In this document: positions 3,572 through 44,246 of the stretch, piece after piece | How the letters are laid out: every line of letters begins with the position of its first letter | How positions within the stretch are numbered: position 1 is the first letter of the stretch | Assembly (NCBI GenBank): GCA_944390275.1 | Contig: CALXPL010000004.1 | Span: 29,139 to 93,138, forward strand | Source of the DNA: an uncultured Alphaproteobacteria bacterium | GTDB lineage: Bacteria; Pseudomonadota; Alphaproteobacteria; RF32; CAG-239 | Length of the DNA: 64,000 nucleotides | Direction: 5' to 3' | Made by a program: the position numbers and the translations under genes | The notes under the pieces: model-generated | What the model saw: the letters and a program-made list of their open reading frames with translations, nothing else | Database searches by the model: none | What the model was told of the DNA's origin: nothing

Positions 3572-3838
3572 ATGCAAGAGATTGCTGCACGAGTCAAGGC
3601 CATTCGCTTGGAGCAAAATCTTTCTCAGGAAGGTTTATCTTTGCGCTCGGGTGTGAGTTTGGGTAGCTTGAAACGTTTTGAACGCACCGGCGAAATATCG
3701 TTGAAATCTCTAATCGAGATTTCCGTAAGTTTGGGCGTTATGGAAGATTTTGACAAACTGTTTGTTAAAGATACGAATATTGAAAGCCTTTTTAATAAAA
3801 AAGAACCCAAAATCCGCAAAAGAGGGAGCGTCAAATGA
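3572..3838 (+). CDS. hipB: HipB-like XRE-family helix-turn-helix antitoxin
   Basis: 88 aa from ATG 3572 (MQEIAARVKAIRLEQNLSQEGLSLRSGVS...), a Cro/C1-type HTH. The ORF track starts at TTG 3518. The stop overlaps the hipA start (ATGA). Confidence 0.7.
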   Translation: MQEIAARVKAIRLEQNLSQEGLSLRSGVSLGSLKRFERTGEISLKSLIEISVSLGVMEDFDKLFVKDTNIESLFNKKEPKIRKRGSVK

Positions 3839-5016
3839 GATTGAATGTTTATTTGAATAGCTTTGGCAAGCGTAAATATGTCGGAGTTTTGGAAGAGGTC
3901 GGGCATCGCATCTTGTTTGAATATGCACCGGAGTTTATTGCGGAAAGAATAAATATTTCTCCGTTTATGTTGCCGCTTCAATCAGGCGTGTTTGAAGACA
4001 AGAAGCAAACTTTTGACGGTCTGTACGGCTTGTTTAACGATAGTCTGCCTGATGGCTGGGGCTGTTTGCTGCTTGATCGTGCCTTGCAGAAAAAAGGTTT
4101 ATCGTTACAACAAATCACGCCGCTAAAACGTCTATCCATCATCGGTCAAAATGCAATGGGGGCTTTGGAATACGAGCCGATAACCGAACACGAGGACGAG
4201 TTTATTGGCGGAATAGAACTGGATTCTCTTTGTGCCGAAGCCAATCGTATCTTGGAAGGAGAAAGTTCGGAAGTCTTAGAAAAACTCCTAACCTTAAATG
4301 GTTCCTCCGGAGGTGCCAGACCAAAAATCGTGGCTTTGGTTTCCGAAGATAAACAAAAAATTATTCATGGTAATGTGGCCAAAGAAGATTTTTCGCCTTG
4401 GATAATTAAATTCGCCTCTTCATTAGACGGTAAGGATATAGGTGCGCAAGAATATATTTATTCGCTGATTGCCAAGCAAGCCGGCGTCGAAATGCCAGAA
4501 ACATATCTGTTTCCTTCTAAAACTTCGGTTGGACATTTCGGGGTAAAAAGATTTGATAGAAACGGAACTCAAAAAATTCATGTCCATACGGCTTGCGGAT
4601 TGCTCCATGCCAGCCACAGATACGCCAGCATTGATTATTCGGACTTGTTAAAACTGACTTTTATATTAACCAAGGATATCAGGGAAGTGGAAAAAATGGT
4701 GCGCCTGATGATTTTTAATGTTAAATCGGGAAACAAAGATGACCATAGTAAAAACTTCTCATTTTTGCTGGATGAAAATAATAATTGGAAGCTAACGCCG
4801 GCTTATGACTTAACACCTTCGGAAGGGATAAACGGCGAACAAACGGCAATGGTCAATGCAAAAGGTAAAGACATTACAACGCAAGACTTTATCAAAACCG
4901 CTGAACCTTTTGGAATTGCAGCAAAAGAGACCATGGAAATCGTGGAACGAACCGAAGATGCTTTGTCTACCTATCCTAAATACGCCAAAGAATTTGGTGT
5001 AAATAAAAAGGGATAA
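3835..5016 (+). CDS. hipA: HipA-family serine/threonine kinase toxin
   Basis: 393 aa with HipA N-terminal and C-terminal domain signatures (SSGGARPKI..., DDHSKNFSFLL catalytic motif). Translationally coupled to hipB. Confidence 0.85.
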   Translation: MRLNVYLNSFGKRKYVGVLEEVGHRILFEYAPEFIAERINISPFMLPLQSGVFEDKKQTFDGLYGLFNDSLPDGWGCLLLDRALQKKGLSLQQITPLKRLSIIGQNAMGALEYEPITEHEDEFIGGIELDSLCAEANRILEGESSEVLEKLLTLNGSSGGARPKIVALVSEDKQKIIHGNVAKEDFSPWIIKFASSLDGKDIGAQEYIYSLIAKQAGVEMPETYLFPSKTSVGHFGVKRFDRNGTQKIHVHTACGLLHASHRYASIDYSDLLKLTFILTKDIREVEKMVRLMIFNVKSGNKDDHSKNFSFLLDENNNWKLTPAYDLTPSEGINGEQTAMVNAKGKDITTQDFIKTAEPFGIAAKETMEIVERTEDALSTYPKYAKEFGVNKKG

Positions 5017-19500: not shown

Positions 19501-22500
19501 TTGTTTCCATACCGATAGAATTTTCACCGTTAAGAGTAATACGACCTTGGTTTTCGATACTACCGGCTTCCACGTACATAGCTTTGAAATTACCATTATC
19601 GTTTTCAATAATACCTTCGTTGACGCCTTGTCCGTTGAGAACATACATACCAATGGAACCATCGGTAATTAACTGTCCGGTAGAGGAGTTTTTAATAATA
19701 CCGCCATCGGCATACATAGCCACAGAAGTAGCATCGTTTACTTGAATTGTTCCGCTGTTAATAGCGGTACCTTGAGTTTGGCTATTACCAAGGATTACGC
19801 CGAGAGCGACCATACCTTGAGAGTTTGGACCGTTGACGGTAATAACGCCGTCTAATTCATTGGTAACGGTAGAATTACCGCCGGCTTCCATACCGATAGA
19901 AGAATCACCGCTTGTTGTAATATTAGCATTATTTGTAAGTTGAGCATCGCCTTCACCTTGCATAGCAATAGAATTTGCTCCAGAAACATTGATGATTTTA
20001 TTATTGATAGCGGTACCGGAACGAGCATACATAGCAATAATGCCTTCTTTCGTAAAGGAAAGAGTTCCTTGGTTTTCAGCATTACCGGAATTGACATACA
20101 TGGCATAAATGCTGTTGTTTCCATCGGAGATGGTAATTGTTCCGTTTAGACCATTAACAATTGTTCCGCCATCTGCATACATACCATAAGAATCATCAGC
20201 ATTGATAGTAATATTTTTATTATTTGTTGCCGTTCCTTGAGTTGCTTGCATACCATAAGATTCATCACCGGTAACATCAATATCTCCGCTGTTATCGATA
20301 GTTCCGGAACCATCAGCAATCATACCGGAAGAGCCAGTACTCATAACATTAATAGTTCCTTTGTTACGAGCTTGACCGCTACCGGTAACTTTCATACCGA
20401 TAGATCCGGTAGAGGAGGCTTCTAAATTGATCGTACCTTCATTAAGAGCACCGATAATACTTGTACTTGACGTACCGCCATCTTGAGTTTGGATACCAAC
20501 AGAATTTTGTCCTTGGATAGTAACGGTAGCATTTGTTTTATTGATAATATCGGCAGAAACGCTGTGCATACCGATAGAGCTGTCAGCAGCCATTGTTATT
20601 GAATTATTGTTAGTGCCGCTTCCGTCGGTTGTAAAAATACCATAAGAGTTTTCACCGTCAACAGAGATAGTTCCATCATTCCAAGCCGTAGCCGCACCAA
20701 GCATTTGCATACCGTAAGAATTATCACCGGTAATAGTAATGGTAGCCCCTTGATGGTTAATTGTGGCGGCGGTTTCTTTGTCGCTAGCACCGGAGCCATT
20801 ACCGCCGATACCGACACCGCCGTAGTTAAGGATAATTTGGCTATAGTTATCAAGAGTACCACCCGTTCCTAAATTCATACCATAACCAAACATATCATTA
20901 AGAGTAATAATACCGTAGTTTTTCGCTTCACCTTCATCAAGATACATACCGTAGGCAATATTTTCCGTCGTAGGATATTGACGTCCGGTAATTGTAATAT
21001 TTCCGTTGTTTGTCATACGACTATAAACACCGGTAGAGCCATACATACCATAATTAAGTTTTCCGTTATGATCTGAACTCATAATAATGTCTTTATTATT
21101 AATAATTTGAGCATTTTCGGCAGTAACACTCATACCGATAGAATTGTAACCGGTAACATTGATAGTTCCGTCATTAACGGCATAGTTTTGAGATTCCATA
21201 CCAGTTGACATAGAACCTGTAATATTAATTTGTCCTTGGTTTGAGGCTTGTCCGAGACCGGATTTCATACCGACACCGGTATCATCAATGGTAATAACAC
21301 CGGAACCATAGTTAATAGCATTTCCGCTTGATGTTGACATACCGACACCGCCGGCTTGCATATTAATTTGTCCGTAGTTTTGGTTTAATCCGGATTCGGT
21401 ATGCATACCATTACCGCGTTTAGTAAAGACGATAGATGAGTTTTGGCTGTTAAGGATGTTGGCTTCATTACCCCAAATACCGAAAGAACCGGTATCGACA
21501 TCAATACCTTGAGATAAATCGCCCGTGGTATTAATGTAGAGATTAGCATTATTAATAACACTTCCTTTTTCAGCTTTAATACCATAAGAAGTTTTATTTT
21601 GAGCTTGTTGGGAGTTATTCAAAGTAATATCGGCATTATTTGTTACAATACCATTTTCTGTAGAAATACCATATTGTTCATTAGCATTGTTAATGGTAAT
21701 TGTTTGATTATTAGTGATAGAGCCGACACCGCCTTTAAGACCATAAGCAAGGTTAGACAAAGAGCCGGTATTTCCGTTAATGGTAATGGCAGCATCATTA
21801 ATAATGTTACCAGCGAGGGCTTCGATGGCATAAGCTTCATTTTTATTTGAAATAGTAATTTCAGCGTTATTGTCAACATCGCCTTGAGTTGACTTAATAG
21901 CATAGGCTTTATCATCAAGAGCCCCGGTGGTATTTCCCATAGTAATTGTAGCATTGTTGACAATGTAACCGTTTTCGGTAGAAAGACCATAGCTTTCTTT
22001 AGCATTATTGATAACAATAGCAGCATTATTGTTGATGTCGGTAACGCCGCCTTTAATACCATAAGCGATGGTAGAAGTGATATTGTTGTTATTTTGGTTA
22101 ATAGATATAGTACCGGTATTATTAACGGTACCAGCGAGGGCTTCAATAGCATAAGCCTCGCTTTTATAATCAATATTAATATTTCCGGAGTTCTCAACAT
22201 CACCTTGAGTTGATTTAATGGCATAGGCTTTTGTATCAAGAGCACCATTGTTGTTACTTAAAGTGATATTTGCCGTGTTAGAAATATCACCGTTTTCCGT
22301 AGAAATAGCGTAAGATTCCGTAGCATTATTAATTGTAATAGCCGCATCATTGGAAATATTGCTGTTTCCGCCCTTAATACCATAAGCCAATTTTGATGTG
22401 AGGCTAGTATTTTGGTTAATAGAGATAGTTCCGGTATTATCAACATTTCCGGCAAGAGCTTCAATGGCATAGGTTTCATCTTTGTTAGAGATAGAGATAG

Positions 22501-30822: not shown

Positions 30823-31004
30823 AGTAAGAAATTCCTGTTACAAAAAACAATCTTTGTAGGAATGTAATATAAAAAAGAAGTGTCTTCAAGTAGAAATACA
30901 AAGCGTTCACAAAAAATATTAATGTTGAAAAGGAATTTTTAACTGGAAAATAAAAAAAAGTTATGCTACAAGACAAAAAAACAAAAGATGAAAAGGAAAA
31001 GGAA

Positions 31005-31769
31005 ATGTCAAGAAAATTATTGATAGCCGGAAACTGGAAAATGAACGGTCTTGTTGCGGAAGGCACCAATTTGGCCAAAGGCGTAGCCGAAGCCGTAAAG
31101 AAAGCCGGAAAGGTTGAATGCGAATTTTTGGTATGTCCGCCGTTTACTTTATTAAGCAATGTTAAGAAGGCATTAAGAGGAGCCAAGGTTAACTTGGGAG
31201 CTCAAGATTGCCATTTTGCGGAAAAAGGAGCACATACGGGAGATATCAGTCCGGTAATGTTAAAAGATATCGGTTGTCAGTATGTAATATTGGGTCATTC
31301 GGAAAGAAGAACAGACCATTATGAAAGCAATGAATTGGTAAACAAAAAGGCACAAGCGGCACACACAGCAGGTTTAAAAACGGTTATTTGTGTTGGTGAA
31401 ACCTTAAGTGAGCGTGAAGCCGGAAAAGCCTTGGAAGTATGCACCAAACAAATTATTGAATCGGTACCGGAAGATTCGACCTCAAGCAATACGGTAATAG
31501 CCTATGAACCGGTATGGGCAATCGGAACGGGAAAAGTACCGACCACCAAAGATGTAGAAGAAGTACATGCCGCTATAAGAAAAACTTTGGCAAAGAAATT
31601 AGGCAAAGGCAATGCCAATAAGATGAGAATACTTTACGGTGGCTCAGTAAAACCCAACAATGCCAAAGAATTATTGTCATTAGAAGATGTTGACGGAGCC
31701 TTAATCGGCGGAGCCAGCTTAAAAGTTGAAGACTTTATGGGTATAGCTAAGAATTCAGGCGCATTTTAG
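31005..31769 (+). CDS. tpiA: Triosephosphate isomerase
   Basis: MSRKLLIAGNWKMNG, ILGHSERR and AYEPVWAIGTG active-site motifs. Start chosen at the ATG with an aaggaaaagga RBS. Confidence 0.9.
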   Translation: MSRKLLIAGNWKMNGLVAEGTNLAKGVAEAVKKAGKVECEFLVCPPFTLLSNVKKALRGAKVNLGAQDCHFAEKGAHTGDISPVMLKDIGCQYVILGHSERRTDHYESNELVNKKAQAAHTAGLKTVICVGETLSEREAGKALEVCTKQIIESVPEDSTSSNTVIAYEPVWAIGTGKVPTTKDVEEVHAAIRKTLAKKLGKGNANKMRILYGGSVKPNNAKELLSLEDVDGALIGGASLKVEDFMGIAKNSGAF

Positions 31770-31792: not shown

Positions 31793-32119
31793 ATGGAAAC
31801 AATTTTGCTTGTTGTTCATTTGCTGATTGCAATATTTTTAGTCTGCTTTATTTTGATGCAAAGATCAGAAGGCGGCGCCTTGGATGGATTAGGCGGGGGT
31901 AGTGGAGCTTCAAATTTTTTAAGTGCTCGCGGAACCGGCAATTTCTTAACCAAGACCACAGCGATATTGGCAACATTATTTTTCATAACGAGCTTGTCAT
32001 TATCACTTTATTATAAGAATGTTGAAAGAAAATCAAATTCAATCATCGTTGCTCCGACAGAAACAACGAGCAACGCACCGGCTCCCGAAGTTCCGACAGT
32101 TCCGGAAGCAGGAAAATAG
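31793..32119 (+). CDS. secG: Preprotein translocase subunit SecG
   Basis: 108 aa with two TM segments and the LMQRSEGG motif. Immediately downstream of tpiA. Confidence 0.8.
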   Translation: METILLVVHLLIAIFLVCFILMQRSEGGALDGLGGGSGASNFLSARGTGNFLTKTTAILATLFFITSLSLSLYYKNVERKSNSIIVAPTETTSNAPAPEVPTVPEAGK

Positions 32120-32198: not shown

Positions 32199-33866
32199 AT
32201 GAGCATTAATGAAAAAATCGAAGATATCTTAAAGAAAAAAGCGAAATTTATATTTATAACCGGCGGTGTTGTTTCCTCCTTAGGCAAAGGTTTGGCATCA
32301 GCGTCATTAGCCTCAATATTACAATCACGAGGCTACAAAGTTCGGTTAAGAAAATTAGACCCTTATTTAAATGTTGACCCCGGCACAATGAGTCCATATC
32401 AACATGGTGAAGTTTTTGTCACCGATGACGGTACGGAAGCCGATTTAGACTTAGGACACTATGAAAGATTTTCAGGAGTTCCGGCCAAAAGAGCCGATAG
32501 CGTAACCACGGGAATAATTTACCAAAGGGTTATCGATAAAGAAAGACACGGAGATTATTTAGGAGCGACAATACAAGTTGTTCCGCATGTTACCAATGAA
32601 ATAAAAGATTTTATTTTATCAGACATTACGGATGAAGATTTTGTGCTGTGTGAGATAGGCGGAACGGTTGGCGACATTGAAGGACAACCTTATTTGGAAG
32701 CCATAAGACAATTAGCATATGAAGTTGGTCGCGCACGAGTAATGTTTCTTCATGTAACATTGTTACCCTACATACCGGCTGCCGGAGAATTAAAAACCAA
32801 GCCGACACAACACTCGGTAAAACAGTTGCAAGAATACGGAATCCAACCGGATATGTTGCTCTGCCGTTCACAAATGCCGATACCGGAAAATGAGAAAAGA
32901 AAGATTGCGCAGTTTTGTAATGTAAAAGAAGAAAATGTAATTGCGGCACTTGATGTCAGCAGCATTTACCAAGTACCAATATCTTATTCTCATGAAGGAA
33001 TAGATGCAGCGGTATGTAAATATTTCGGTTTAACAGATGCCAAACCGGCAGATTTAAGCAAATGGGAACATATTGTCGATGTTTTGAAAAATCCTGAAGG
33101 AACAGTAAATATAGGTGTTGTCGGTAAATACACACAGCTTTTGGAAGCCTACAAATCCTTAAACGAAGCCTTAGTCCATGGAGGAATAGCCAATAAATAC
33201 AAAGTAAAAATCAAATGGATAGATTCGGAAAAACTAGAGAGTGAAAAACCGGAAGATGAATTATCGGATGTGAGCGCAATACTTGTTCCCGGAGGTTTTG
33301 GTCAGCGCGGAACGGAAGGCAAAATAAAAGCGATTAAATATGCCAGAGAACATAAAGTTCCGTTTTTGGGCATATGTTTCGGAATGCAGATGGCGGTAAT
33401 AGAAACCTTGCGCGATATAGCCGGAATCAAGAATGCCGGCACAACGGAGTTTATGAGCGATTGCGAACCCGTAGTTGGCTTAATGACGGAATGGGATAAG
33501 GACGGAGCGAAACAAATACGACATAAGGACGGAGATTTAGGCGGTACGATGCGCTTGGGAGCTTATGAATGCTGTTTAAAGAAAGGTTCAAAAGTCGCTG
33601 AAGTTTACGGACAAGATAAAATCTCGGAACGCCACAGACATCGTTATGAAGTGAACATCAAATATGAGGATAAATTGGCCGAAAGCGGCATGATAATTTC
33701 AGGACGTTCACCGGTAGGAAATTTGCCTGAAATTGTAGAGATACCGACACATCCGTGGTTTATCGGTGTTCAATTTCATCCGGAATTAAAATCGAAACCT
33801 TTTGCGCCGCATCCGTTATTTGTTTCCTTTGTAAGAGCGGCCATAGAAAACAGCCGTTTGATATAA
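32199..33866 (+). CDS. pyrG: CTP synthase
   Basis: 555 aa. N-terminal synthetase domain ([16 protein letters not shown]) and C-terminal glutamine amidotransferase with the catalytic GICFGMQ. Confidence 0.95.
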
Positions 33867-33964
33867 ATAAAGAAGTAGAATTAGCCCTCTTGACAATAAG
33901 AAAAGAGGGCTAAGAAAATATAAGGAATAAAGTGTAAAAACATTAATGATTAAACGCAGACTTT

Positions 33965-34780
33965 TTAAATTTTCATAACGGGACGAGTACGAACAGACGA
34001 AGTTTTTTGCTCTTGTAGAAAAACAGAGGACAAGGGAGAAAATATACCTGACGCATTCAAGTTAGTACCACTGACTGTAAAAAATGAGGATTCATGAGCC
34101 TCATTTGATGAGGCATAAGTATAATTACTGACTATCATGAATCCATGAAACCAGAAAAATTTTAAACCATATCTATAGATATTAAACCAAATAGCATTAG
34201 AGGGAATACACCATTTCCCTTTTGTTTGAGGAGCAGACTGTGGGGCATAATTTTTCACAACTTGCGCAAGAGGGTACTTATCAGCTCCGCGTGCCAACAT
34301 AGCATCAGTATCTTCACAACTTGTATTCGAAAGTATAGATTCGAGAGTTCCATCATATGAGGTACTATATATTTCTTCACCATCGGTAAAACCGGTTCCG
34401 ATTTCCGGTATATCGACAAGTTCCGTTGACCAGACACCGCTGACACTAGCGTTAGACATAACCCATTTATCGCCATTGGGGTCAATATAAACGACATTCC
34501 CCAAATGAGTTTTATTCTTATCTCTTTTGAGCGAACACGTTCCATCGCTGTAATAAAGAGAACCCATGATACAGTCTTGATTATTATTCCCTTGAGAATT
34601 ATTTTCGCTTTTACAAGCCCATGTATTGCCAAACGGACATTTGATACCGCCATTTTCACAAGAAGTTTCGGTGTAACCTAAAGTAGCGCAATCTTGCGTC
34701 GCAACGCATTGTGCCGAAACATTGCCCATAGCAAAAGGAGCCGTTAATAAAACCGAAGTCAATAAAGTAAATTTTCTCAT
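33965..34780 (-). CDS. Cysteine-rich secreted protein, short form type A (signal peptide + one EGF-like Cys module + ~190-aa C-terminal domain). Family member 1b
   Basis: Signal peptide MRKFTLLTSVLLTAPFAMGNVSA|QC, then the QDCATLGYTETSCENGGIKCPFGNTWAC module. C-terminal region homologous to 42732-43484 (...NYAPQSAPQTKGKWCIPS...RPVMKI). aggag RBS. 14 nt downstream of the long-form gene. Confidence 0.6.
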   Translation of the reverse strand: MRKFTLLTSVLLTAPFAMGNVSAQCVATQDCATLGYTETSCENGGIKCPFGNTWACKSENNSQGNNNQDCIMGSLYYSDGTCSLKRDKNKTHLGNVVYIDPNGDKWVMSNASVSGVWSTELVDIPEIGTGFTDGEEIYSTSYDGTLESILSNTSCEDTDAMLARGADKYPLAQVVKNYAPQSAPQTKGKWCIPSNAIWFNIYRYGLKFFWFHGFMIVSNYTYASSNEAHESSFFTVSGTNLNASGIFSPLSSVFLQEQKTSSVRTRPVMKI

Positions 34781-34794
34781 TTCTTTTCTCCTTT

Positions 34795-35823
34795 CTAATC
34801 GAGGCAATAAACATAATTGGTATTGAACGGACATTTTACGGATTTTCCCTCACAGCTTTGTTGGGCATAACCCAAAACGGAACAATCTTGGCTTAGCGTA
34901 CAGAAATCAAAGCCGGGACAAACACAAGCTCCTTGTGAAGCGTTCCATGTAAAACCACTCGCACATTTACATTTTGAATATTTGTTGTCGCAAGAATTCC
35001 CATCTCCTCCCGAATACCCCGTGCCGGAGCAAGAATATTTGAAAGAAGTGGCGCAAACGCATTTCTTTTGGGTATCACTCCATTCATAATTATTGGGGCA
35101 GTTGCATTTTTGATAATAAGTTCCGCTATCATCGGAACAGGTACTTCCGCTTCCGCCTTGTGTTCCACAGGTTGGGGCTGAAACATATTTTTGCGGGTCG
35201 CATTTGATTTTATATTTTTTACCATCACATGATTGACATTCGCCATTGCTCACATACCCCGACGGAATAGAGGTATATTGATAATCAGAACAGAGATTAC
35301 AACATTCTTTATATTTACCGCCGCAAGAAGTTCCGACACCTTGTTCGCCGAGAGCCGTATCACAAACTTGATTATATTCGGAAGAACATTCACAATCGGA
35401 ATGATAAGAACTGTCATAAGGGCAATAAGAGGTAGGGGAGCTTCCATCGGGACAAGGCGTGTTGGTATAACCAGCTTGTTTACAAAGTTCCTCAGGAGTG
35501 CCGTGGTCATCGGGATTTCCTCCGCCGCCTCCACCGTCAGGAGTTTCCGTATTACCGAATTTATCCGCTCCACAATTTCCCGCATCGGTTATAAAACACA
35601 CCGAAGCAATTTGCACACCGTTATTTGTTCTTTTCGCAAAAAGCTGTGATGATAAGTCAAGTCCGTGAAGAGTATGGCGTATGTATGTGTGATGTATGTG
35701 TAAAGTGGGAATGCCAGACTTGAGGAGTGAAGAATCATCCTCAAAAGACGCATAAGTTACATTTCCGCTGTCAACAAATAAGCTGACGGCAGACAACAAG
35801 AGTACTTTTGAAAATTGTTTCAT
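34795..35823 (-). CDS. Cysteine-rich secreted protein, long form (multi-module EGF-like). Family member 1a
   Basis: Start taken at MKQFSKVLLLSAVSLFVDSGNVTYA (aaggagga RBS). The ORF track extends upstream to 35964. ~40 Cys in conserved spacing (VCFITDAGNC...GKYKECCNLC...CNCPNNYEW...CKCASG...CPFNTNYVYCLD). ~80% identical to 62504-63487. Confidence 0.6.
   Translation of the reverse strand: MKQFSKVLLLSAVSLFVDSGNVTYASFEDDSSLLKSGIPTLHIHHTYIRHTLHGLDLSSQLFAKRTNNGVQIASVCFITDAGNCGADKFGNTETPDGGGGGGNPDDHGTPEELCKQAGYTNTPCPDGSSPTSYCPYDSSYHSDCECSSEYNQVCDTALGEQGVGTSCGGKYKECCNLCSDYQYTSIPSGYVSNGECQSCDGKKYKIKCDPQKYVSAPTCGTQGGSGSTCSDDSGTYYQKCNCPNNYEWSDTQKKCVCATSFKYSCSGTGYSGGDGNSCDNKYSKCKCASGFTWNASQGACVCPGFDFCTLSQDCSVLGYAQQSCEGKSVKCPFNTNYVYCLD
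34930..35322. repeat. ~400-bp near-identical segment shared, in inverted orientation, with 62951-63356 (the central parts of the two long Cys-rich genes)
   Basis: Identical protein runs (YTSIPSGYVSNGECQSC.GKKYKIKCDPQKYVSA; CGTQGGSGSTCSDDSGTYYQKCNCPNNYEWSDTQKKCVC). Identical out-of-frame peptides too (VEHKAEAEVPVPMIAELIIKNATAPII in ORFs 34893-35246 and 63096-63374), which requires nucleotide identity. Confidence 0.7.
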
Positions 35824-35853
35824 CACATCCTCCTTGCTTATCATCACGACTCT

Positions 35854-35882
35854 AATATAACATATTTGTTGCAAAGTGTAAA
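35854..35882 (-). promoter_or_regulatory. Putative promoter TTTACA-17-TATATT for Cys-rich cassette 1 (minus strand)
   Basis: On the minus strand: tttaca, 17-nt spacer, tatatt, ending ~30 nt upstream of the ATG. The leader carries gtgatgataag + ggagg, a motif also present in front of 41113. Confidence 0.35.
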
Positions 35883-35953
35883 TACATAATTTTGATAAAG
35901 AAGGAGAAAAAAGACATAAAAAAGACTTGTAAAAAAAAGAAAAATAAAATAAG

Positions 35954-36763
35954 TTGAAGCGCAATTTAAATTATTTTAGCATGATTATTATGAACACAGA
36001 AATTATTGGTTTAGCAAAAGAAATTTATGAGGGGATTCAAAAAGGAGAACCTAAAATAAATTTCAAAGACAACAACAAGGATGTAATCAAGTTTCTTTAT
36101 GACAATGACAATGCGGTAAATTATTTCAAAGAACTTTTTGACTCTTACGGAATTCGCAGAAAATTAGAACAATGCAACAAAATAATTTTGTATGGTGATG
36201 ACATCTATGGAATTATTTATGGACTGTATGCTTATGCATTGTACTATGCGGATTGGAAAATATTTCCAGATTTAAGAATTATTGTACCGAGTAATGAAAT
36301 ATCCCGAGACATAGCCGGATTTTTGCGACGGTTGGAAATACCATACCAACTTTATACGGAAGAACAAAAATACCTTCTTGCTCGAGATATTCTCTCCGTA
36401 AGAAATTTTTTTGTTTATGCACCGGAAAGGCAGAAAGATATTCAAAAATTCGGTTATAAAAACCTTCTTTGCTACATGTACAAAGAAGAATTTTCAAACA
36501 TTTTTAATTCAGGATGTGTTAGCCAAAAGGGAATGATGACATTACTGAATGAATATGTAAGCGGGTGCATACAAAGACAAACTCGCCATCAAAGATTTCG
36601 AGATTACTATCCAAATTTGCAAAAGAAAACAGCAGAGAAGTGGAAGAGCGAATACGATGAAACCGAATTTTCGGAAGAGGTTAATAAAGAAGCCCGAGAA
36701 GAACTGTTATCAAAACATGAGTTTAAGATAAAAGACATGTTGATAACCTGTCGAAACCACTGA
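35954..36763 (+). CDS. Hypothetical protein, 269 aa, divergently transcribed from Cys-rich cassette 1
   Basis: ORF with Tyr/Lys-rich composition and no recognisable domain. It lies between pyrG and kdsA together with cassette 1. Confidence 0.4.
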   Translation: MKRNLNYFSMIIMNTEIIGLAKEIYEGIQKGEPKINFKDNNKDVIKFLYDNDNAVNYFKELFDSYGIRRKLEQCNKIILYGDDIYGIIYGLYAYALYYADWKIFPDLRIIVPSNEISRDIAGFLRRLEIPYQLYTEEQKYLLARDILSVRNFFVYAPERQKDIQKFGYKNLLCYMYKEEFSNIFNSGCVSQKGMMTLLNEYVSGCIQRQTRHQRFRDYYPNLQKKTAEKWKSEYDETEFSEEVNKEAREELLSKHEFKIKDMLITCRNH

Positions 36764-36891: not shown

Positions 36892-37740
36892 ATGGAACAA
36901 AGGATTATAAAAATCGGCAATTTTGAAATAAGCAATAAATTACCATTTGCACTTCTTGCCGGTCCATGTCAGATAGAAAGCCGTCAACATGCCATAGACA
37001 TGGCGGGTTGGATGGTAGAAATCACCAAAGAGTTAGGGATTAATTATATATTCAAAGCCTCTTTTGATAAAGCCAATCGCACATCAATAAATTCACCGCG
37101 CGGAGTTGGTTTGGAAGAGGGGATAAGAACCTTTGATGAAATAAAGAAATTATACAATAATCTTCCGATAGTAACGGACATTCACGAAAGAGAACAATGC
37201 GCAATAGTCGCTCCGCATGTTGATATGTTGCAAATTCCGGCATTTTTGTGCCGTCAAACAGATTTAGTCGTAGCAGCGGCACAGACGGGAAAAGTCGTTA
37301 ATATCAAAAAAGGACAGTTTTTGGCACCTTGGGATATGAAAAACATTGTAAAAAAAGCTGATGACAGCGGTAATTGCAATGTTTGCATAACAGAAAGAGG
37401 CGCAAGTTTTGGCTATAATACTTTGGTTACGGACTTCAGAGGTTTACCGCGCATGGCAAAAGATAGCGGCTGCCCAATAATTTTTGATGCAACCCATTCG
37501 GTACAACAACCGGGAGGATTAGGCGGAACCTCAGGAGGACAAGGGGAATATGCTCCGGTTTTGGCACGAGCTGCCGTAGCTGTTGGAGTTGCTGCCGTCT
37601 TTATTGAAACGCACGACCATCCGGAAAAGGCTTTGTCAGACGGTCCGAATATGATACCGCTTAAAGATATGAAAAAAGTCTTAAGCCAGTTGCAGGCCTA
37701 TGATAAGATTACCAAAAGCATGATAGAAGATTATGAGTAG
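36892..37740 (+). CDS. kdsA: 3-deoxy-8-phosphooctulonate synthase (KDO-8-P synthase)
   Basis: 282 aa. LLAGPCQIES, FKASFDKANRTS and IFIETHDHPEKALSDGPN motifs. Confidence 0.9.
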   Translation: MEQRIIKIGNFEISNKLPFALLAGPCQIESRQHAIDMAGWMVEITKELGINYIFKASFDKANRTSINSPRGVGLEEGIRTFDEIKKLYNNLPIVTDIHEREQCAIVAPHVDMLQIPAFLCRQTDLVVAAAQTGKVVNIKKGQFLAPWDMKNIVKKADDSGNCNVCITERGASFGYNTLVTDFRGLPRMAKDSGCPIIFDATHSVQQPGGLGGTSGGQGEYAPVLARAAVAVGVAAVFIETHDHPEKALSDGPNMIPLKDMKKVLSQLQAYDKITKSMIEDYE

Positions 37741-37755
37741 TCGAAACGCAAAGAG

Positions 37756-38472
37756 ATGGAATTTTCGGACGAAGGCTACATTATAAGGATAAGAAAACAC
37801 GGTGAGAAAGGACTTATTCTCACCGTTTTAAGTGCGCATAACGGAAAAATAATCGGCTATGTCAAGAACGGCATGAGCAAAAAATATTTCGGCATATGCC
37901 AATTAGGCAATAAAATCAGTGTAAACGGTTACACACGGCTAGAAGAAAATATGTATCGTTTCCAAGTTGATTTGATAAAGTCTTATGCAGTAGAATTTAT
38001 GACGGATAATCAAAAACTTGCCGCATTGTCTTCCTTTTGTGAGTTAAGTTCCGCATGCATGGTTGAAAAAGACAATTTAGGGCTATTTTACAAAAGAGTT
38101 GAAGACTTTTTTAATTTTATACATGAAGATAATTGGCTAACATATTATACTTATTTTGAATTTTACTTATTGGAATATCTCGGCATAGGGTTGGATTTAA
38201 GCGAATGTGCCGTAACCAGAAGTCGCGAAAATTTGCAATATGTATCTCCGAAAAGCGGCAAAGCCGTATGCGAAGAAATAGGCAAAGCCTACCAAAATCG
38301 GCTTTATCGGTATCCGCATTATATCATGGAACAGAGAAAGAACCCAAGTTTGGAGGAAATAAAAGAAGTGTTAAAACTGACGGAGTTTTTCCTAAATAAA
38401 AATTTTTTTCGGATACATGGCTTGAAATTCCCAGAAAACCGTGCTACTTTGCTGAATAAATTAGAGCTATAA
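37756..38472 (+). CDS. recO: DNA repair protein RecO
   Basis: 238 aa. N-terminal OB-fold region ([21 protein letters not shown]...) and RecO-like length and architecture. Confidence 0.75.
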
Positions 38473-38489: not shown

Positions 38490-40727
38490 ATGTCTGAAGA
38501 AAACACCGCAGAAAATACCGAAAGAGTAAAAGATGTACACTTGGCAGAGGAACTGAGCAGTCGTTATTTATCCTACGCCATGTCAACCATAGTTTCACGT
38601 TCGCTTCCGGATGTGAGAGATGGTTTAAAGCCTGTTCACAGAAGACTTTTGTATGCGATGCGTCAACTCCATCTTGATCCAAAATCAGGATATAAAAAAT
38701 GCGCAAGAGTTGTCGGTGACGTAATCGGTAAATATCACCCGCACGGAGACAGTGCCGTTTATGGAGCCATGGTTCGCTTGGCTCAAGATTTTTCGGTAAG
38801 ATATCCTTTGGTTGACGGGCAGGGAAATTTTGGAAATATCGACGGGGACGGAGCCGCCGCCATGCGTTATACGGAAGCTCGCTTAACGGAATTTGCCATG
38901 GCATTGATGGAAGGTCTGAACGAAAATGCGGTTGATTTTCGCGAAACCTATGATGGTGAAGAAGACGAACCGGTTGTTATGCCGTCGATGGTTCCGAATT
39001 TATTATGTAATGGGTCTTCGGGTATTGCCGTTGGTATGGCAACGAACATTCCTCCGCACAATTTGAGTGAAGTCTGCGATGCTCTTTTATATTTGATAGA
39101 TAATCCCACATGTGAGATTGAACCCTTGGTCAGACGGTTAAAGGGGCCGGATTTTCCGACAGGAGGGGTAATTGTCGATAAGTTTGAAAGTATATTAAAC
39201 ACCTATAAGGACGGAAAAGGCTATTTTCGGATTCGAGCCAAATGGGAAAAAGAAGATTTAGGACATGGCCAATATCAAATTGTCGTAAAAGAGATACCTT
39301 ATCAGGTTATAAAATCGAAGCTGATAGAAAAGATAGCGGAATTATTGTTTAACAAGAAGATACCTCTGTTAAATGATGTAAGAGATGAATCATCGCATGA
39401 TGTTCGTATTGTTTTAGAACCGAAGAACCGTAGTGTTGATGCCAATTTGTTAATGGAACACTTGTTTAAGCAAACGGAATTAGAAACAAGATTCAGCATG
39501 AATATGAATGTTTTAGATTCGGAAGGTGTTCCACACGTATTAGATATAAAACAAGTTTTACAAGAATTTTTAAATCATCGCCATATCGTTTTGCAAAGAC
39601 GAGCACAATATCGCTTAGATAAGATAAACACGCGTTTGGAAATTTTGTCGGGATATTTGATAGCGTATTTGAACTTAGATGAGATAATTCGGATAATACG
39701 CGAAGAAGACGAAGCCAAAGCGGTAATGATGAAGGAGTTCAACTTAAGCGACAATCAAGCGGAAGCAATTTTAAATATGAAATTGCGTTCGTTAAGAAAA
39801 CTCGAGGAAGAAGAAATCCGTCAAGAATATGATGATTTAAGCGGAGAAAAAGCCGAACTTGAGGAATTGCTTGGAGATGAGAAAAAACGTTGGGAAGCTC
39901 TGGGCAATGAAATAAAGCTGATAAAAGAAAAGTTTGGCAAAAAGACGGCATTAGGCAAACGCCGCACAGAGTTTTCGGAAGCACCGGAAGATATAGAAAT
40001 GCCGTTAGAAGCCATGATAGAAAAAGAGCCGATAACGATAATTTTATCGCAAAAGGGCTGGATAAGATGCTTGAAAGGACATACAGATTTAAGCGAAGAG
40101 TTTAAGTTTAAAGATGATGATGCCTTGCAGGCCGCCATTCATGCACAAACAACGGATAAAATCATCATATTTGATACAGCCGGCAAGTTCTATACCATAC
40201 CGGCCAATGACATTCCGAGCGGCAGAGGTTTCGGACAACCGTTAAGATTGATGATAGATTTGGGCATAAACGATTCGGTATGTTCAATGTTTACATTTGA
40301 AGCGGGAGCAAAATATGTTATATCATCGGATACGGGCAAAGGCTTTGTTGTCGATGAAAGCCACATATTAGCGCAAACCCGCAATGGCAAGAAGATATTA
40401 AACCTCGGAGAAGGCGAGGTAGCTGCTTTTTGTAAGAAGGTAACCGGAGATATGGTTGCCATCATAGGAGAGAACCGCAAATTATTGGTTTTCAAAATGG
40501 AAGAAATACCGAGTATGGCGCGTGGTCGTGGCGTAACCTTACAAAAATACAAAGACGGCAAAATGTCCGATATTCAGATATTCAAGGAAGAAGAAGGATT
40601 TGTATATAAACGAGCCGGCGGCAGTAAGACGGAAACGGAATTGCTAAATTGGCTTGGTCATAGGGCGCAAGTCGGAAAATTGGCACCGTTTGGTTTCCCG
40701 AAGAGTAACAAGTTTATGAAAGAATAA
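38490..40727 (+). CDS. parC: DNA topoisomerase IV subunit A (ParC; GyrA-family, 745 aa)
   Basis: Catalytic region AMRYTE with the active-site Tyr, [16 protein letters not shown], and a C-terminal beta-pinwheel. The size fits ParC rather than GyrA. Confidence 0.8.
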
Positions 40728-40731
40728 GGAC

Positions 40732-40911
40732 ATGTCGGAAGTATTGTTTGAATATTCGCGGCAAGGGAATTTTGTAAAGGTTACGGCGATAGAAACCGAA
40801 ACCCGAATAGAGGTAAGTGTAATTGTACCGGCCAGTTTATCGGAACGTCAAATGCAGATACAAGCCTTGCAAAAGTTAAAATACGTGATGGAAAAACAAG
40901 CAGAAGAATAA
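40732..40911 (+). CDS. Small conserved-looking ORF, 59 aa, downstream of parC
   Basis: aagga RBS 6 nt upstream of the ATG. MSEVLFEYSRQGNFVKVTAIETETRIEVSVIVPASLSERQMQIQALQKLKYVMEKQAEE. Followed by a terminator. Below the 60-aa cutoff of the ORF track. Confidence 0.35.
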   Translation: MSEVLFEYSRQGNFVKVTAIETETRIEVSVIVPASLSERQMQIQALQKLKYVMEKQAEE

Positions 40912-40967: not shown

Positions 40968-41112
40968 AAAAAAAATCGCAACTATGAAATTCAAAACACG
41001 AGTATATCAGTAGGCTACGTCAATTTTTTTATTAAAAAAATAAATTAACCCTTGTACATAGCATAAAATTGTGATAAAGTAAAAAATGTGATGATAAGTG
41101 TGGAGGGATACT

Positions 41113-42717
41113 ATGACTGGTATTGCAAGAGTGATTCTGTGTACAGTTTCAGGACTTATGTGTTTTGAGACTAATTTAGCATATTCATTAACAAAAAATA
41201 CAGCGTCAAGCGTCCCGAGATTAGGGTTTCATACACAATACACACACAAATTTTTACCTAACGATACCGACTTATCATCACCATTATTTGATGTAAGACC
41301 GATAACGGGAGAAGGCTCTGGAGAAAGTTCCGGACGCGAATATAAAGAAGCAAATGTTTGTTTTATTACAGACACGGAAGATTGCTCTCATGATAAATTC
41401 GGAAATAATGAAACTCCGGGTAAGCCGAATGATCCCGGTTATGGCGATCCGGATGATTTATGTAAGGCTGCAGGATATAATAATCCTGTCTGTGGAGATG
41501 GAATGCAGCCTGGAGATTTTTGCCCTTACGATGAGTCATATTACAAAAGATGTGTTTGTTCATCAATATACGGTAAGACATGTGATGCAGAAGATGATTT
41601 AAGAGGGGTCGGAGCATCGTGTGATGGGAAGTATAAAGAATGTTGCAATATTTGCACGGGATATGATTATTTAAAAATTCCTAATGACTATGTCAGTAAT
41701 GGAGAATGTGATTCTTGCGACGGCAAGAAATACAAAATCAAGTGTGATCCGACAAAATTTTTAATTAACGTAGATTGTGGTCCTCAAGGAGGTATGGGGA
41801 GAGCCTGTACGGATGATGACGGTATTCATTATGAAAACTGTAACTGTCCGAATAAATATGTCTGGAGCAGTGTCTCACATAAATGTGTCTGTGCGGATGT
41901 TTACAAATACAGTTGCCAAGGGACGGGTTATGCCGGAGGAGACGGAGAGTCATGTGATGAAAAATACATGAAATGTAAATGTTCGGAAGGATATCGTTGG
42001 GATACGACCCAAGGAGCCTGTGTCTGTGATGGAGAAGACTGGTGCTCGCTTAATCAAGATTGTTCATCCTTGGGCTATAAGCGAGAAACTTGTAAAACGC
42101 AAGCCATAAAATGTCCTTTTGATACGGCGTATGTTCATTGTGTCAAAGCAAGTTGTGCTTTAGGAGATATTTTGAATAATGATATGACTTGCAGTAAGAC
42201 AACAGAAGCAGGCAAAACGCCGATAGGTGTTGTCGTTTATGTTGGTGAGGACGGTAAAAGACAAGCCGTAGCCTTAGAAGAACTACCGAAAGTTTCTTGG
42301 GGAGTTTCCAGTAAAATTAAAACAAGCGTGCTTCCGGAGTTAACATACGAAGAAGCGATGAGTGATTTAGATAGCTGTGGCAATACACTGAGATTGGTTT
42401 ATGCTTCACAGCAAAATGGCGGAGGCGTTTATCCGGCAGCGGAAGCAGCTTACAACTATGCACCGGCGGCAGCTCCGGAGACAAAAGGACAATGGTGCTT
42501 ACCCTCATTCAATATAGTGAACCGAATTGATGATGATATAAAAGTACAGAAGACCATATCTGATTTAGGGATAAAAATGCAATATTTTCGCTATTGGTCA
42601 TCGTCAGCGGCAGAAAAAGGTCAATATGCACCATACTATCAAGCATGGCAGCTTTCGAGCTATGGCGGCGATACTATTGGTGAGCTTGAAAATGTAAGAC
42701 CGGTAATTGAATTTTAG
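41113..42717 (+). CDS. Cysteine-rich secreted protein, long form fused to the type-A C-terminal domain. Family member 2a
   Basis: Start MTGIARVILCTVSGLMCFETNLAYS (ggaggg RBS). The Cys-module region (VCFITDTEDC...GKYKECCNIC...CNCPNKYVW...CKCSEGYRW...CPFDTAYVHC) is followed by a ~190-aa domain homologous to the short type-A proteins (GKTPIGVVVYV...AAYNYAPAAAPETKGQWCLPS...RPVIEF). Confidence 0.6.
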   Translation: MTGIARVILCTVSGLMCFETNLAYSLTKNTASSVPRLGFHTQYTHKFLPNDTDLSSPLFDVRPITGEGSGESSGREYKEANVCFITDTEDCSHDKFGNNETPGKPNDPGYGDPDDLCKAAGYNNPVCGDGMQPGDFCPYDESYYKRCVCSSIYGKTCDAEDDLRGVGASCDGKYKECCNICTGYDYLKIPNDYVSNGECDSCDGKKYKIKCDPTKFLINVDCGPQGGMGRACTDDDGIHYENCNCPNKYVWSSVSHKCVCADVYKYSCQGTGYAGGDGESCDEKYMKCKCSEGYRWDTTQGACVCDGEDWCSLNQDCSSLGYKRETCKTQAIKCPFDTAYVHCVKASCALGDILNNDMTCSKTTEAGKTPIGVVVYVGEDGKRQAVALEELPKVSWGVSSKIKTSVLPELTYEEAMSDLDSCGNTLRLVYASQQNGGGVYPAAEAAYNYAPAAAPETKGQWCLPSFNIVNRIDDDIKVQKTISDLGIKMQYFRYWSSSAAEKGQYAPYYQAWQLSSYGGDTIGELENVRPVIEF

Positions 42718-42731
42718 AGAAGGAGAGAGAG

Positions 42732-43484
42732 ATGAAAAAAATAATGTTCTTAAGCAGTTTTACCCTTATGTCTCTCTTTCTGGGAGAAAGCAAGGTGTTA
42801 GCGCAATGTGCAAATGTCAATTTTGATTGTCGGGCTGCGGGTTATACGCAAACCTCATGTCCGTCGGGCGGAGTAAGATGTCCTACGGATAACAGCTTAT
42901 GGTACTGTCCGCAAAACACGGCATTTTGTGAAGTCGGCTATATCTTAAATAGTGATATGAGTTGTACAAAAAACAAAGTAAGCGGAAAGACCCCGATTGC
43001 AGTTGTTGCCTATCTTGATGGTAAGGGAGGAGGACAGGCAATCAGTCTGGAAGATTTACCGGCTCAAGTAATGATGGCATCGGGAGTAACAATACCGGAT
43101 AGTTATGAAGAAACTAGTTTTGCGATGACAGGTGTAAAGAGTTGTGAAAAAACACAGCTTTTAATAAATTCGGGAGATAAAAGTAAATTTCCGGCAGCCT
43201 GGGCAGCTTATGAATATGCGCCGGCAGCGGCTCCCAATACAAAAGGAAAATGGTGTATTCCGGATGTTGGTGTCTTGTTTTATGCAAGAAGAGCATACGC
43301 AGCGGAGATAGATGCAGCAATAAAAAATTTGAATGCAGAAGAATTTACGGATTACTACTGGACAACATCTTTAACCGAAAAAAGAGGGATGTATTCATTT
43401 CATTTTGTGAAAGACGACGGTATAACGACAAGCTATGGATATTATGATAGAAATTATAAAATTCGTCCGGTTATAGAATTTTAG
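42732..43484 (+). CDS. Cysteine-rich secreted protein, short form type A. Family member 2b
   Basis: Signal peptide MKKIMFLSSFTLMSLFLGESKVLA|QC, the module CRAAGYTQTSCPSGGVRCPTDNSLWYCP, then the conserved C-terminal domain ending RPVIEF. 14 nt after the upstream gene. Confidence 0.6.
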   Translation: MKKIMFLSSFTLMSLFLGESKVLAQCANVNFDCRAAGYTQTSCPSGGVRCPTDNSLWYCPQNTAFCEVGYILNSDMSCTKNKVSGKTPIAVVAYLDGKGGGQAISLEDLPAQVMMASGVTIPDSYEETSFAMTGVKSCEKTQLLINSGDKSKFPAAWAAYEYAPAAAPNTKGKWCIPDVGVLFYARRAYAAEIDAAIKNLNAEEFTDYYWTTSLTEKRGMYSFHFVKDDGITTSYGYYDRNYKIRPVIEF

Positions 43485-43496
43485 GGGAGAAAGAAC

Positions 43497-44246
43497 ATGA
43501 AAAAAACAAATATTTTTTTATTAAGCAGTGTCCTAATATGTTCTCCGTTAATTTTCAGCGCGAATACTTACGGTCAACAATGTGTCATTTCTGATTGTGC
43601 TTATTTAGGATATACCGAAACGAGTGATAAGGGCGGATGTTTAAAATGTCCATTCGGTGATTATTGGTTTTGTCCGGCAGCAGACAGAGAAAATTGTGAT
43701 TCAATGTATGCCTTTCCTTGTAATCGTAGTAATGAATATACACCTTCAGGATCATATAGTGAGAGTTGTAACGGAAGATATAAGAGATGTGGTTGTCGAA
43801 ATAATTCAGATTGGCTTGCAGGTTGGTTATCTTGCGATTGTGATACAAATTCATATAAATATACCTGTACCGGAACACATGAAGTTCCTCCATATACATC
43901 AGATCAGTGTGATGGTAAATATTCTTATTGTGCGTGTGATGATGAACGTTATGGGTGGTCAAAACGAACAGGAACTTGTTCTCTCAAAGGAACATTAGAA
44001 TACTTTATAGTAAAAGCAGAATGTTTTGAAGCAGCAAGCTATATTAGAGCCATGGGGACAACAAGTCAAAGACGCTGTAGCGTTTGTCCCTCGAATGTAA
44101 CAAGCTTTACGACGGAGTTACTGATGAAAAATTTTACTTCAGGTACTGATGAACAAAATATGCGTGATTGTATTAACTATGTTGATAGTTATCAATCCAC
44201 ATGGTATGAGTACGGAAGTTGTTTCTATGATGACAGTTGTAAATAA
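43497..44246 (+). CDS. Cysteine-rich secreted protein, short form type B (all Cys modules). Family member 2c
   Basis: Signal peptide MKKTNIFLLSSVLICSPLIFSANTYG|QQC, then ISDCAYLGYTETSDKGGCLKCPFGDYWFCP and the YKYTCTGT...GKYSYCAC modules. 12 nt after the upstream gene. Confidence 0.6.
   Translation: MKKTNIFLLSSVLICSPLIFSANTYGQQCVISDCAYLGYTETSDKGGCLKCPFGDYWFCPAADRENCDSMYAFPCNRSNEYTPSGSYSESCNGRYKRCGCRNNSDWLAGWLSCDCDTNSYKYTCTGTHEVPPYTSDQCDGKYSYCACDDERYGWSKRTGTCSLKGTLEYFIVKAECFEAASYIRAMGTTSQRRCSVCPSNVTSFTTELLMKNFTSGTDEQNMRDCINYVDSYQSTWYEYGSCFYDDSCK

Follow-up and report, generated by a model that had tools for sequence, protein, structure and literature searches.

Between pyrG and kdsA in the genome of an uncultured Alphaproteobacteria bacterium (contig CALXPL010000004.1, of which we analysed a stretch of 64 kb, hereafter the window), the order of housekeeping genes is interrupted by a minus-strand operon for cysteine-rich proteins, composed of a long and a short gene (long1 and short1, together cassette 1), and by a divergent plus-strand orphan gene, hyp269. 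The first gene of the operon shares its leader with long2, the first gene of a second such cluster (cassette 2) in the same window. What does this leader do, and how did the operon come to stand among housekeeping genes? A preliminary description of the window had read the whole block as an accessory insertion, and the leader as a sign of common post-transcriptional control, for example as a target of a small RNA (sRNA), Hfq or CsrA near the ribosome-binding site. The comparisons reported here point in part elsewhere: with a probability that we put at about 60%, the leader is the 5' strand of a 5' mRNA domain which folds back on itself, and which would close the ribosome-binding site and protect the 5' end of the message.

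The leader motif and its inverted partner

Both leader strings quoted in the preliminary description, cgtgatgataagcaaggagga upstream of ATG 35823 in cassette 1 and tgtgatgataagtgtggaggga upstream of ATG 41113 in cassette 2, are present in the sequence. The 11-mer GTGATGATAAG has four exact copies in the 64 kb, where shuffled sequences yield a mean of 1.28 even with one mismatch allowed, and two of the four are inverted and lie inside the same two genes (35646-35656 and 41271-41281). The leader is followed by its exact reverse complement 180 nt downstream in cassette 1 and 170 nt downstream in cassette 2, in Asp-Leu-Ser-Ser codons of both (D-L-S-S-Q in long1), and the four copies make up two inverted pairs, each of which brackets the Shine-Dalgarno (SD) sequence, the AUG and the signal peptide. 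Compared between the cassettes, the arms are identical at 22 of 22 positions and the sequence between them at 75 of 168 (45%).

The promoter predicted for long1 (10 of 12 matches in the promoter scan, with the TG of an extended -10) ends 6 nt before the arm. This spacing recurs in the family: of 33 elements, 28 have 6-7 nt between the end of the extended -10 and the arm and five have 8-10 nt, and from this position the 5' arm is predicted to be the extreme 5' end of the mRNA. The six bases that separate the extended -10 from the predicted +1, AGAKTC (35848-35853, minus strand), are conserved in most family promoters across species (L010-L106), which hints at a shared promoter-proximal signal.

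Structure and covariation of the 5' domain

In the predicted fold (Table 1), the closing helix P1 joins the first 11-20 nt of the predicted transcript to a partner 165-180 nt downstream in Leu-Ser-Ser codons, in P2 SD and AUG are bound by an anti-SD located ~95-105 nt inside the coding sequence, the signal-peptide codons form a hairpin (P3), and a weaker fourth helix closes a loop that contains an unpaired CA-rich tract. In cassette 1, P1 and P2 stack into a quasi-continuous helix of ~35-45 bp and the minimum free energy (MFE) of the domain is -67.8 kcal/mol (z = -5.7 against shuffles; z = -2.5 in cassette 2). The duplex between untranslated leader and coding sequence has -19 to -34 kcal/mol, compared with a mean of -11.7 (standard deviation 3.4, minimum -19.9) for 40 genes of the window, and the probability of being unpaired, P(unpaired), over the region from SD to AUG is 0.22 versus 0.47 for window genes (p = 6e-6). 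In nascent transcripts the SD is moderately accessible in silico, and that of cassette 1 closes once the RNA has been made up to ~+180. Neither element has a match in Rfam at E <= 5, and a single tRNA alone reaches the gathering score in the window.

The pairing is kept while its sequence changes. At least seven different arm sequences, found in ~33 genes, preserve P1: besides GUGAUGAUAAG there are a ..AAA/UUU.. type (L104, L027, L098), the arms of L099 (20 bp, 3 G.U), GAGCGG/CCGCUC (L010), UGUGAUAAGUGUG (L074), GGAAAGARGUUUG (L016, L019-22, L041) and GUGAAGACAACAAC/GUUGUUGUCUUC, the last in at least 12 paralogues of the metagenome-assembled genome (MAG) BRZ_RM bin80; GUGAAGACAACAAC/GUUGUUGUCUUC, GAAGACAAGC/GCUUGUCUUC, GUGAAGACAAAUG and CGAGAAAAG/CUUUUCUCG are among the hits of the covariance model described below. 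When the leaders of family members are aligned, conservation is not confined to the SD, and the motif varies together with the downstream arm; Leu-Ser-Ser is retained with codons that differ by type (UUA UCA UCA versus UUG UCU UCA), each matched by a corresponding change in the leader.

A covariance model, made from 11 sequences and searched against 925 kb, matched only at the starts of family genes. Among 21 model-aligned sequences, P1 is paired in 96.2% of the cells with 7 of 12 pairs compensatory, and the SD helix in 86.9% (87-89% across alignments) with 4 of 6 compensatory; over all helices 80.8% of cells are paired, as against 39-49% when the partners are slid, and the covariation score is 0.363 as against 0.07-0.14, a value that none of 500 shuffles reaches. 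A MAFFT alignment gives 81.8% paired cells (38-52% for slid partners) and 17 compensatory pairs. At the level of sequence, these comparisons show a conserved, covarying long-range pairing that encloses SD and AUG.

Shared leaders could in principle be functionless, inherited in duplicated genes and kept alike by gene conversion. The family is highly paralogous, its 5' modules from promoter to linker are shared by genes with different bodies (L089 and the window), and promoter and discriminator sequences are conserved too. Inheritance cannot, however, explain why a leader matches its own arm over at least seven sequence types and through synonymous codon changes, nor an arm identity of 100% beside 45% over the intervening 168 nt, and it is contradicted by the compensatory changes, which leaves it extremely improbable.

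The CA-rich tract (cacacaca; His/Thr codons, e.g. HIHHTYIRHT) lies at 35690-35720 (minus strand) in cassette 1 and, for example, at 41230-41255 (plus strand) in cassette 2. In all element types it is kept at the nucleotide level and predicted to stay single-stranded, and it may serve some factor as a landing pad or be prone to slippage.

Proposed consequences for the mRNA

According to the reading that we favour, the 5' domain would fold back on itself after ~200 nt have been transcribed, sequestering the ribosome-binding site and burying the 5' end, and the result would be a default-closed, decay-protected and long-lived mRNA. Protein would be made only in a short co-transcriptional window, or after an opening event, for which a helicase, RNase processing or a trans-acting RNA or protein are candidates.

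The structure might instead act mainly on the fate of the mRNA, either because a paired 5' end blocks 5'-end-dependent decay or because P1 and P2 form a site at which RNase III would inactivate or mature the message. P1 begins at the predicted +1 and no other helix is as well conserved (96% paired), some members occlude the SD incompletely, and the quasi-continuous P1+P2 helix of cassette 1 is ~35-45 bp long. As the main role this is nevertheless rather unlikely, given that the helix of SD and anti-SD covaries too (4 of 6 pairs compensatory) and that SD accessibility is clearly under background. The two roles are compatible.

A trans-acting sRNA, Hfq or CsrA, binding the leader and co-regulating the cassettes, would account for a leader conserved beyond the SD in both; the conserved CA-rich tract, predicted to be unpaired, could serve it as a landing site, and some opening factor is needed in any case. 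Against this, the covarying partner in the same molecule fully explains the conservation of the motif, whose only other copies or complements within the 64-kb window are the intragenic arms; arm sequences vary among the paralogues of one genome, and the sole GGA motifs of the leaders are the SD itself. As the explanation of the shared leader, such a binding site is, on the evidence of these 64 kb, quite unlikely. Of the common control suggested in the preliminary description, the conservation beyond the SD stands and a post-transcriptional role near the ribosome-binding site is the best reading; the evidence points to an intramolecular helix with SD:anti-SD pairing.

A bolder proposal, and an unlikely one, would make the element a new class of cis-regulatory RNA that gives each adhesin paralogue a default-off mRNA, the variable arms being addresses for arm-specific trans-acting RNAs or proteins; in a variant, which we include in the same low estimate, paralogous mRNAs with identical arms, such as those of cassettes 1 and 2, would compete. 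In either case only chosen paralogues would be opened. Antigenic or adhesin variation would then be set at translation, not by DNA rearrangement.

A thermometer of the rpoH type, opening at host temperature, was also considered. As in rpoH, SD and AUG pair with coding sequence up to ~200 nt downstream (PMC4166951); the predicted SD accessibility, however, stays flat from 20 to 50 °C, the MFE of most members is -57 to -76 kcal/mol at 37 °C, and the organism is known only from gut samples. The occlusion expected of a thermometer is thus predicted and the melting is not, and the idea, rejected in silico, retains a minimal probability.

Several points weigh against the fold-back domain as we read it. 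The sequences all stem from metagenome assemblies; the structures behind the covariation statistics were obtained from the very sequences that were counted, and one of the alignments had been fitted to the model; close kinship among many of the paralogues means that the counts are not independent events. Occlusion of the SD is partial in some members (P(unpaired) 0.36-0.41 in L103 and L016), and several family genes, including a third copy in the window at 62486, are without the element, so that the family as such can do without it. Ribosomes moving through the coding sequence would melt the 3' arm, for which reason the closed form would be limited to untranslated mRNA, and in silico the domain does not melt between 20 and 50 °C. 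Finally, Watson-Crick covariation of this kind would also arise from an inverted repeat in DNA.

RNA helix or invertible DNA

Because of this last point DNA inversion, which was in fact considered first, was tested. In this reading the DNA between the arms would be an invertible switch, a partly intergenic inverton with the arms as its inverted repeats, and a flip of ~200 bp would detach SD, ATG and signal peptide from a phase-varied adhesin. Perfect inverted repeats of 11-16 bp, 164-180 bp apart, do bracket the translation start of surface-protein-like genes in a gut bacterium, intragenic and partly intergenic invertons are known from gut bacteria (PMC10028968), and assemblies of the same species often break near long1. 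The orientation census argues otherwise: all 40 of the 40 recognisable N-terminal segments (from ~100 loci) are collinear with their gene, all contigs of the pyrG-kdsA locus are collinear and none is inverted, and the contig breaks, scattered over positions other than the arms, are consistent with mosaic strains and paralogy. No recombinase domain occurs among the genes called within 10 kb.

The arms themselves speak for RNA. The MAG JAUNPO holds four different self-complementary arm pairs and CALYAY at least two, which a single invertase would not all recognise; four pairs in one MAG argue for pairing of arm with arm and not for recognition by one protein. Where the arms mismatch, the sense strand allows G.U pairs (24 G.U and a single A.C in the duplex census, a count biased by the method), and an unbiased comparison of the two strands in 15 cases finds P1 stabler on the sense strand in 12 (p = 0.005). 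Moreover, the interior helices P2 and P3 covary too. The MFE of the whole domain on the two strands is uninformative, family genes without the element showing the same bias. Equally uninformative was a scan of Joint Genome Institute (JGI) metagenome contigs for inverted junctions: it came back empty, and says nothing because the family is absent there, a control scan for the arm pair having found only four unrelated elements resembling miniature inverted-repeat transposable elements (MITEs). These (L113-L116), which have terminal inverted repeats of ~35 bp (GTGATGATAAGTCCTTAGCC...), end in the same 11-mer pair, a coincidental match.

With segments collinear, breaks that do not coincide with the arms, several arm pairs per genome, greater stability on the sense strand and covarying interior helices, the sequence data favour RNA structure over DNA inversion, which was set aside as very unlikely on the grounds of orientation census, strand asymmetry and the several arm types per genome.

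The Cys-rich, lectin-tailed protein family

The genes that carry the element encode a protein family whose common plan is a signal peptide, a disordered linker of ~50 amino acids (aa), a rod of small disulfide-rich modules and a lectin-like domain of the Lcl-C/DUF1566 type; the last resides in a separate downstream 'short' gene in cassette 1 and is fused to the long gene in cassette 2. As a correction to the preliminary description, long2 thus combines a long1-like and a short1-like part in one gene. In long1 the signal peptide is followed by a His/Thr-rich linker, an ASVCFITD motif and an array of disulfide-rich modules, in short1 by the Cys module QCxxxxDCxxLGYTETSCxxGGxKCPF and a divergent Lcl-C/DUF1566-like lectin domain. 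None of the six cassette proteins matches Pfam or NCBIfam at E <= 1.

Membership in the Lcl C-terminal domain family (PF07603) was examined by gathering score, which the window proteins do not reach; other family members score 25-43 bits (cut-off 34.9). short1 was aligned with seven other 'short' proteins, and by profile comparison its domain type matches the Lcl_C-matching domains of other family members with 98.9% probability (hhalign, E 1e-17). The predicted fold is C-type-lectin-like and can be superposed on the experimental structure of Lcl-C, a domain known to bind sulphated glycosaminoglycans (PMC11162425). The collagen-like repeat region of Legionella Lcl has no counterpart in the window proteins, the N-terminal part of which is instead the array of Cys-rich modules, without significant structural match. 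The last ~75 residues of short1 (33965-34190, minus strand) are unlike those of all other 'short' proteins and the YW(S/T)SS motif is missing; a frameshift behind this odd C-terminus was looked for and none was found, and the lectin domain may be degenerate in this strain.

The AlphaFold model of long2, based on a 54-sequence alignment, is confident for residues 111-534, while residues 1-110, the peptide encoded by the RNA element, are predicted to be disordered (predicted local distance difference test, pLDDT, 30-40); a single-sequence model of short1 was uninformative (pLDDT 36). A profile search with long1 found no sequence match in the PDB, and Foldseek found no significant match of the Cys-rich rod to PDB structures (best E 0.04). 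Cys-rich repeats of the EGF/TNFR type were rejected as candidates (Pfs25, LDLR, megalin and CD40 with E >= 0.04 and template modelling score, TM, <= 0.13; profile against PDB sequences empty).

A search with long2 returned 101 homologues, all of them unnamed, and a family scan with one genome per species confirmed 322 stretches. Nearly all of the best 80 of these 322, from which the distribution was read, derive from ~8 uncultured (alpha)proteobacterial MAGs, and BRZ_RM bin80 alone has more than 25 copies; operons of a long and a short gene occur in many unrelated housekeeping neighbourhoods. Judging from domain content and secretion signals, we infer that the family consists of secreted, adhesin-like proteins, and by the same evidence cassette 1 is a two-gene member of a very large, unannotated, putatively secreted family of uncultured gut Alphaproteobacteria.

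A third family gene of the window (62486-63487, plus strand; 333 aa, 10.5% Cys) has a body with ~80% DNA identity to long1; its signal peptide is different, and the covariance model of the fold-back element has no match there. Near the cassettes, a giant open reading frame of 2879 aa (16559-25198, minus strand), whose homologue has a BigA_3rd (PF27417) domain, is probably another surface protein gene.

A strain-variable slot between pyrG and kdsA

Metagenome contigs that encode an identical PyrG or an identical hyp269 carry four alleles of the segment 33868-35905. The first is the cassette of the window (L001, L003, L090 and several partial contigs). The second (L002/L088), which blastn matches to the window up to 33867 and again from 35906, has an unrelated 251-aa cytoplasmic orphan gene, on whose flanks lie the original pyrG terminator and a 71-bp second copy of the pyrG 3' end (a direct repeat, 95.8% identical; L002 11599-11669 and 12717-12787). 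The third (L089) is a mosaic in which promoter, leader and signal peptide of long1 are followed by other family genes and a zeta-toxin gene, and the fourth (L096) is an empty site that joins window position 33865 to 35906. As judged from these contigs, the Cys-rich operon is accessory at the level of strains.

The alleles show some peculiarities of their own. The 71-bp repeat of L002 resembles a relic of site-specific integration, and an integrase is absent there. L089 has a tandem duplication within the signal-peptide codons of long1 (3593-3872), with which the RNA model still matches at 187 bits. In L096 (1-330) pyrG is fused to the region upstream of hyp269, stop codon and terminator of pyrG are lost, and PyrG would gain ~19 residues. 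Around the Cys-rich cassette of the window neither a direct repeat of the pyrG 3' end nor an integrase was found, and an island integrated site-specifically at the 3' end of pyrG was rejected as its description; nor has the base composition of the cassette region a foreign signature.

Comparable layouts exist beyond the species. In the MAG BRZ_ED bin7 (L035; KdsA 90% identical), a family gene on the opposite strand and a distant hyp269 homologue precede kdsA-recO-parC, with a second hyp269 homologue on the other side, and in BRZ_RM bin80 (L051) a 743-aa family gene lies directly upstream of kdsA, pyrG being on a different contig. Since another species shares the layout of long gene, hyp269 homologue and kdsA, the slot upstream of kdsA is, by this comparison, an old variable site repeatedly occupied by family genes and not the place of a recent insertion. 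The accessory insertion of the preliminary description therefore holds for the Cys-rich operon, with its four alleles; it does not hold for hyp269, which lies outside the insertion because it is present in all four, and the idea of an ancestral arrangement at this position, which the insertion had been set against, gains some ground from the shared layout in BRZ_ED bin7.

This gene, hyp269, is an orphan coding for a cytoplasmic protein, separate from the cassette and resident in the slot. It has no match in Pfam, NCBIfam or PADLOC, and no relatives beyond its own species cluster were found in a word search of 5.8 billion proteins and an exhaustive HMMER search of 1.84 billion representatives; distant paralogues were seen in L035 of BRZ_ED bin7. 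A second allele (L107-L112) with 74% protein identity belongs to strains that show 98.6-99.6% identity in PyrG, KdsA and RecO and have the 251-aa gene in the slot; on the evidence of these identities, hyp269 is a local hotspot of divergence. PADLOC and PHROGs searches with hyp269, the 251-aa gene, the relatives in L035 and the genes of L089 gave only weak, non-significant matches, those of hyp269 being to PHROGs families of unknown function.

Gene layout of the window

Open reading frames and Pfam domains bear out the gene order given in the preliminary description, with tpiA, secG and pyrG on one side of the Cys-rich operon and its divergent neighbour, and kdsA, recO and parC on the other (Table 1). 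The starts of the long and short genes were taken as ATGs with a preceding SD; long1 and short1 are separated by 14 nt. Gene callers give hyp269 a length of 260 or 257 aa. The hairpin in the pyrG-short1 gap is probably a bidirectional terminator; a terminator scan did not call it, its loop being >8 nt. Between parC and cassette 2, a 59-aa gene with a DUF6898 domain (40732-40911, plus strand) is kept in all strains examined.

Table 1. Genes and elements of the cassettes and their surroundings, in window coordinates
Feature	Position	Strand	Remarks
tpiA	30963-31769		Pfam TIM
secG	31793-32119		Pfam SecG
pyrG	32199-33866		Pfam CTP_synth_N
Strain-variable segment (cassette 1)	33868-35905		starts right after pyrG stop, ends ~75 nt upstream of hyp269; blastn against same-species contigs
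Hairpin agccctctt...aagagggct	33883-33911		between converging pyrG and short1; read from sequence
short1	33965-34780	-	271 aa, 9 Cys; only modest Cys enrichment
long1	34795-35823	-	342 aa, 32 Cys (9.4%)
Fold-back 5' domain of long1 (predicted)	35639-35852	-	~210 nt: leader, SD, AUG, signal-peptide and linker codons; covariance model 208.8 bits
P1 3' arm CUUAUCAUCAC	35646-35656	-	inside long1, 180 nt downstream of 5' arm; compensatory changes in family
P2 3' strand with anti-SD CUCCUC	35722-35747	-	long1 codons 26-34; in MFE and centroid structures
SD AGGAGG (35829-35834) and start codon (35821-35823)	35821-35834	-	5' strand of helix P2; P(unpaired) of SD 0.01
P1 5' arm GUGAUGAUAAG	35837-35847	-	the leader motif; begins at predicted +1
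long1 promoter (predicted)	35854-35882	-	-35 TTTACA, 17-nt spacer, extended -10 TGtTATATT
hyp269	35954/35981-36763	+	269 aa from TTG 35954; 260 aa from ATG 35981
kdsA	36892-37740		Pfam DAHP_synth_1
recO	37756-38472		Pfam RecO
parC	38490-40727		Pfam DNA_topoisoIV
Fold-back 5' domain of long2 (predicted)	41083-41288	+	arms 41088-41099 and 41270-41281; SD GGAGGG pairs with GUCCC; 143 bits
Cassette 2	41113-44246	+	long2, 250-aa 'short' paralogue and 249-aa Cys-rich protein
long2	41113-42717	+	534 aa; Cys-rich part fused to lectin domain
'Short' paralogue of cassette 2	42732-43484	+	250 aa
Cys-rich protein of cassette 2	43497-44246	+	249 aa

Implications

As a variable surface-protein locus the cassette looks ordinary; the unannotated family to which it belongs is extraordinary, and the sequence comparisons strongly support the leader as part of a new RNA structure of a known general kind. 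If our reading is true, a ~210-nt, four-helix, well-covarying mRNA structure outside Rfam would control a hugely expanded, secreted and lectin-tailed family of never-cultured gut Alphaproteobacteria, and the fold-back principle of rpoH and of small toxin mRNAs would extend to large proteins that are secreted or at the surface, the partner strand being part of the coding sequence. The RNA structure would shape the choice of codons and even a conserved peptide motif, Leu-Ser-Ser. A family for which neither Pfam nor NCBIfam has a model, which numbers tens of copies per genome and which strains gain and lose at fixed slots presents the pattern expected of host- or phage-facing surface molecules.

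Comparison with known systems

In the rpoH mRNA of E. coli, the region of SD and start codon is closed by coding sequence up to ~200 nt downstream, within a large 5' domain of many helices (PMC4166951). The rpoH thermosensor, and likewise the cspA mRNA, thus resemble the element described here in pairing leader and start region with distant coding sequence in a large 5' domain. By contrast, there is no relationship to either in sequence or Rfam, and no melting is predicted in the physiological range; the closing helix is formed here by the extreme 5' end, and the genes that carry the element are many paralogues encoding secreted, adhesin-like proteins.

In the type I toxin mRNAs hok and aapA1/aapA3, the 5' end pairs with a distant segment and a far anti-SD holds the SD, the mRNA remaining inert and stable until opened; their fold-back structure is backed by coupled covariations across the gene family (PMC6733600). 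A 5' end paired to a distant downstream segment, with covariation, is found in our element as well. The partner in hok and aapA is the 3' end of a short mRNA, which is activated by 3' trimming, whereas here it is part of the coding sequence, at codons ~57-60 in genes ~340-780 codons long (proteins of 342-778 aa). Neither a toxin peptide nor an antisense RNA is evident here, antisense promoters not having been looked for.

In the leader of the MS2 phage maturation gene, a case mentioned in PMC6733600, long-distance pairing closes the SD, and translation takes place only on nascent, unfolded RNA. The complementary sequence lies there upstream of the SD, in a phage RNA, and for the present element a kinetic window of this kind is only hypothesised.

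Among systems based on DNA, invertons share with the element short inverted repeats around a segment of ~200 bp at the 5' end of surface-protein genes (PMC10028968). They differ from it in that the segment is found here in one orientation (40 of 40), with several arm types per genome, G.U mismatches and covarying interior helices.

The vsp and vlp loci of Mycoplasma, finally, consist of many paralogues that share a conserved 5' module on divergent bodies and are switched by DNA repeats or by site-specific inversion. A module of promoter, leader and signal peptide on divergent bodies, at loci that vary between strains, is common to both systems; in the family described here, the conserved module itself carries the predicted RNA structure.

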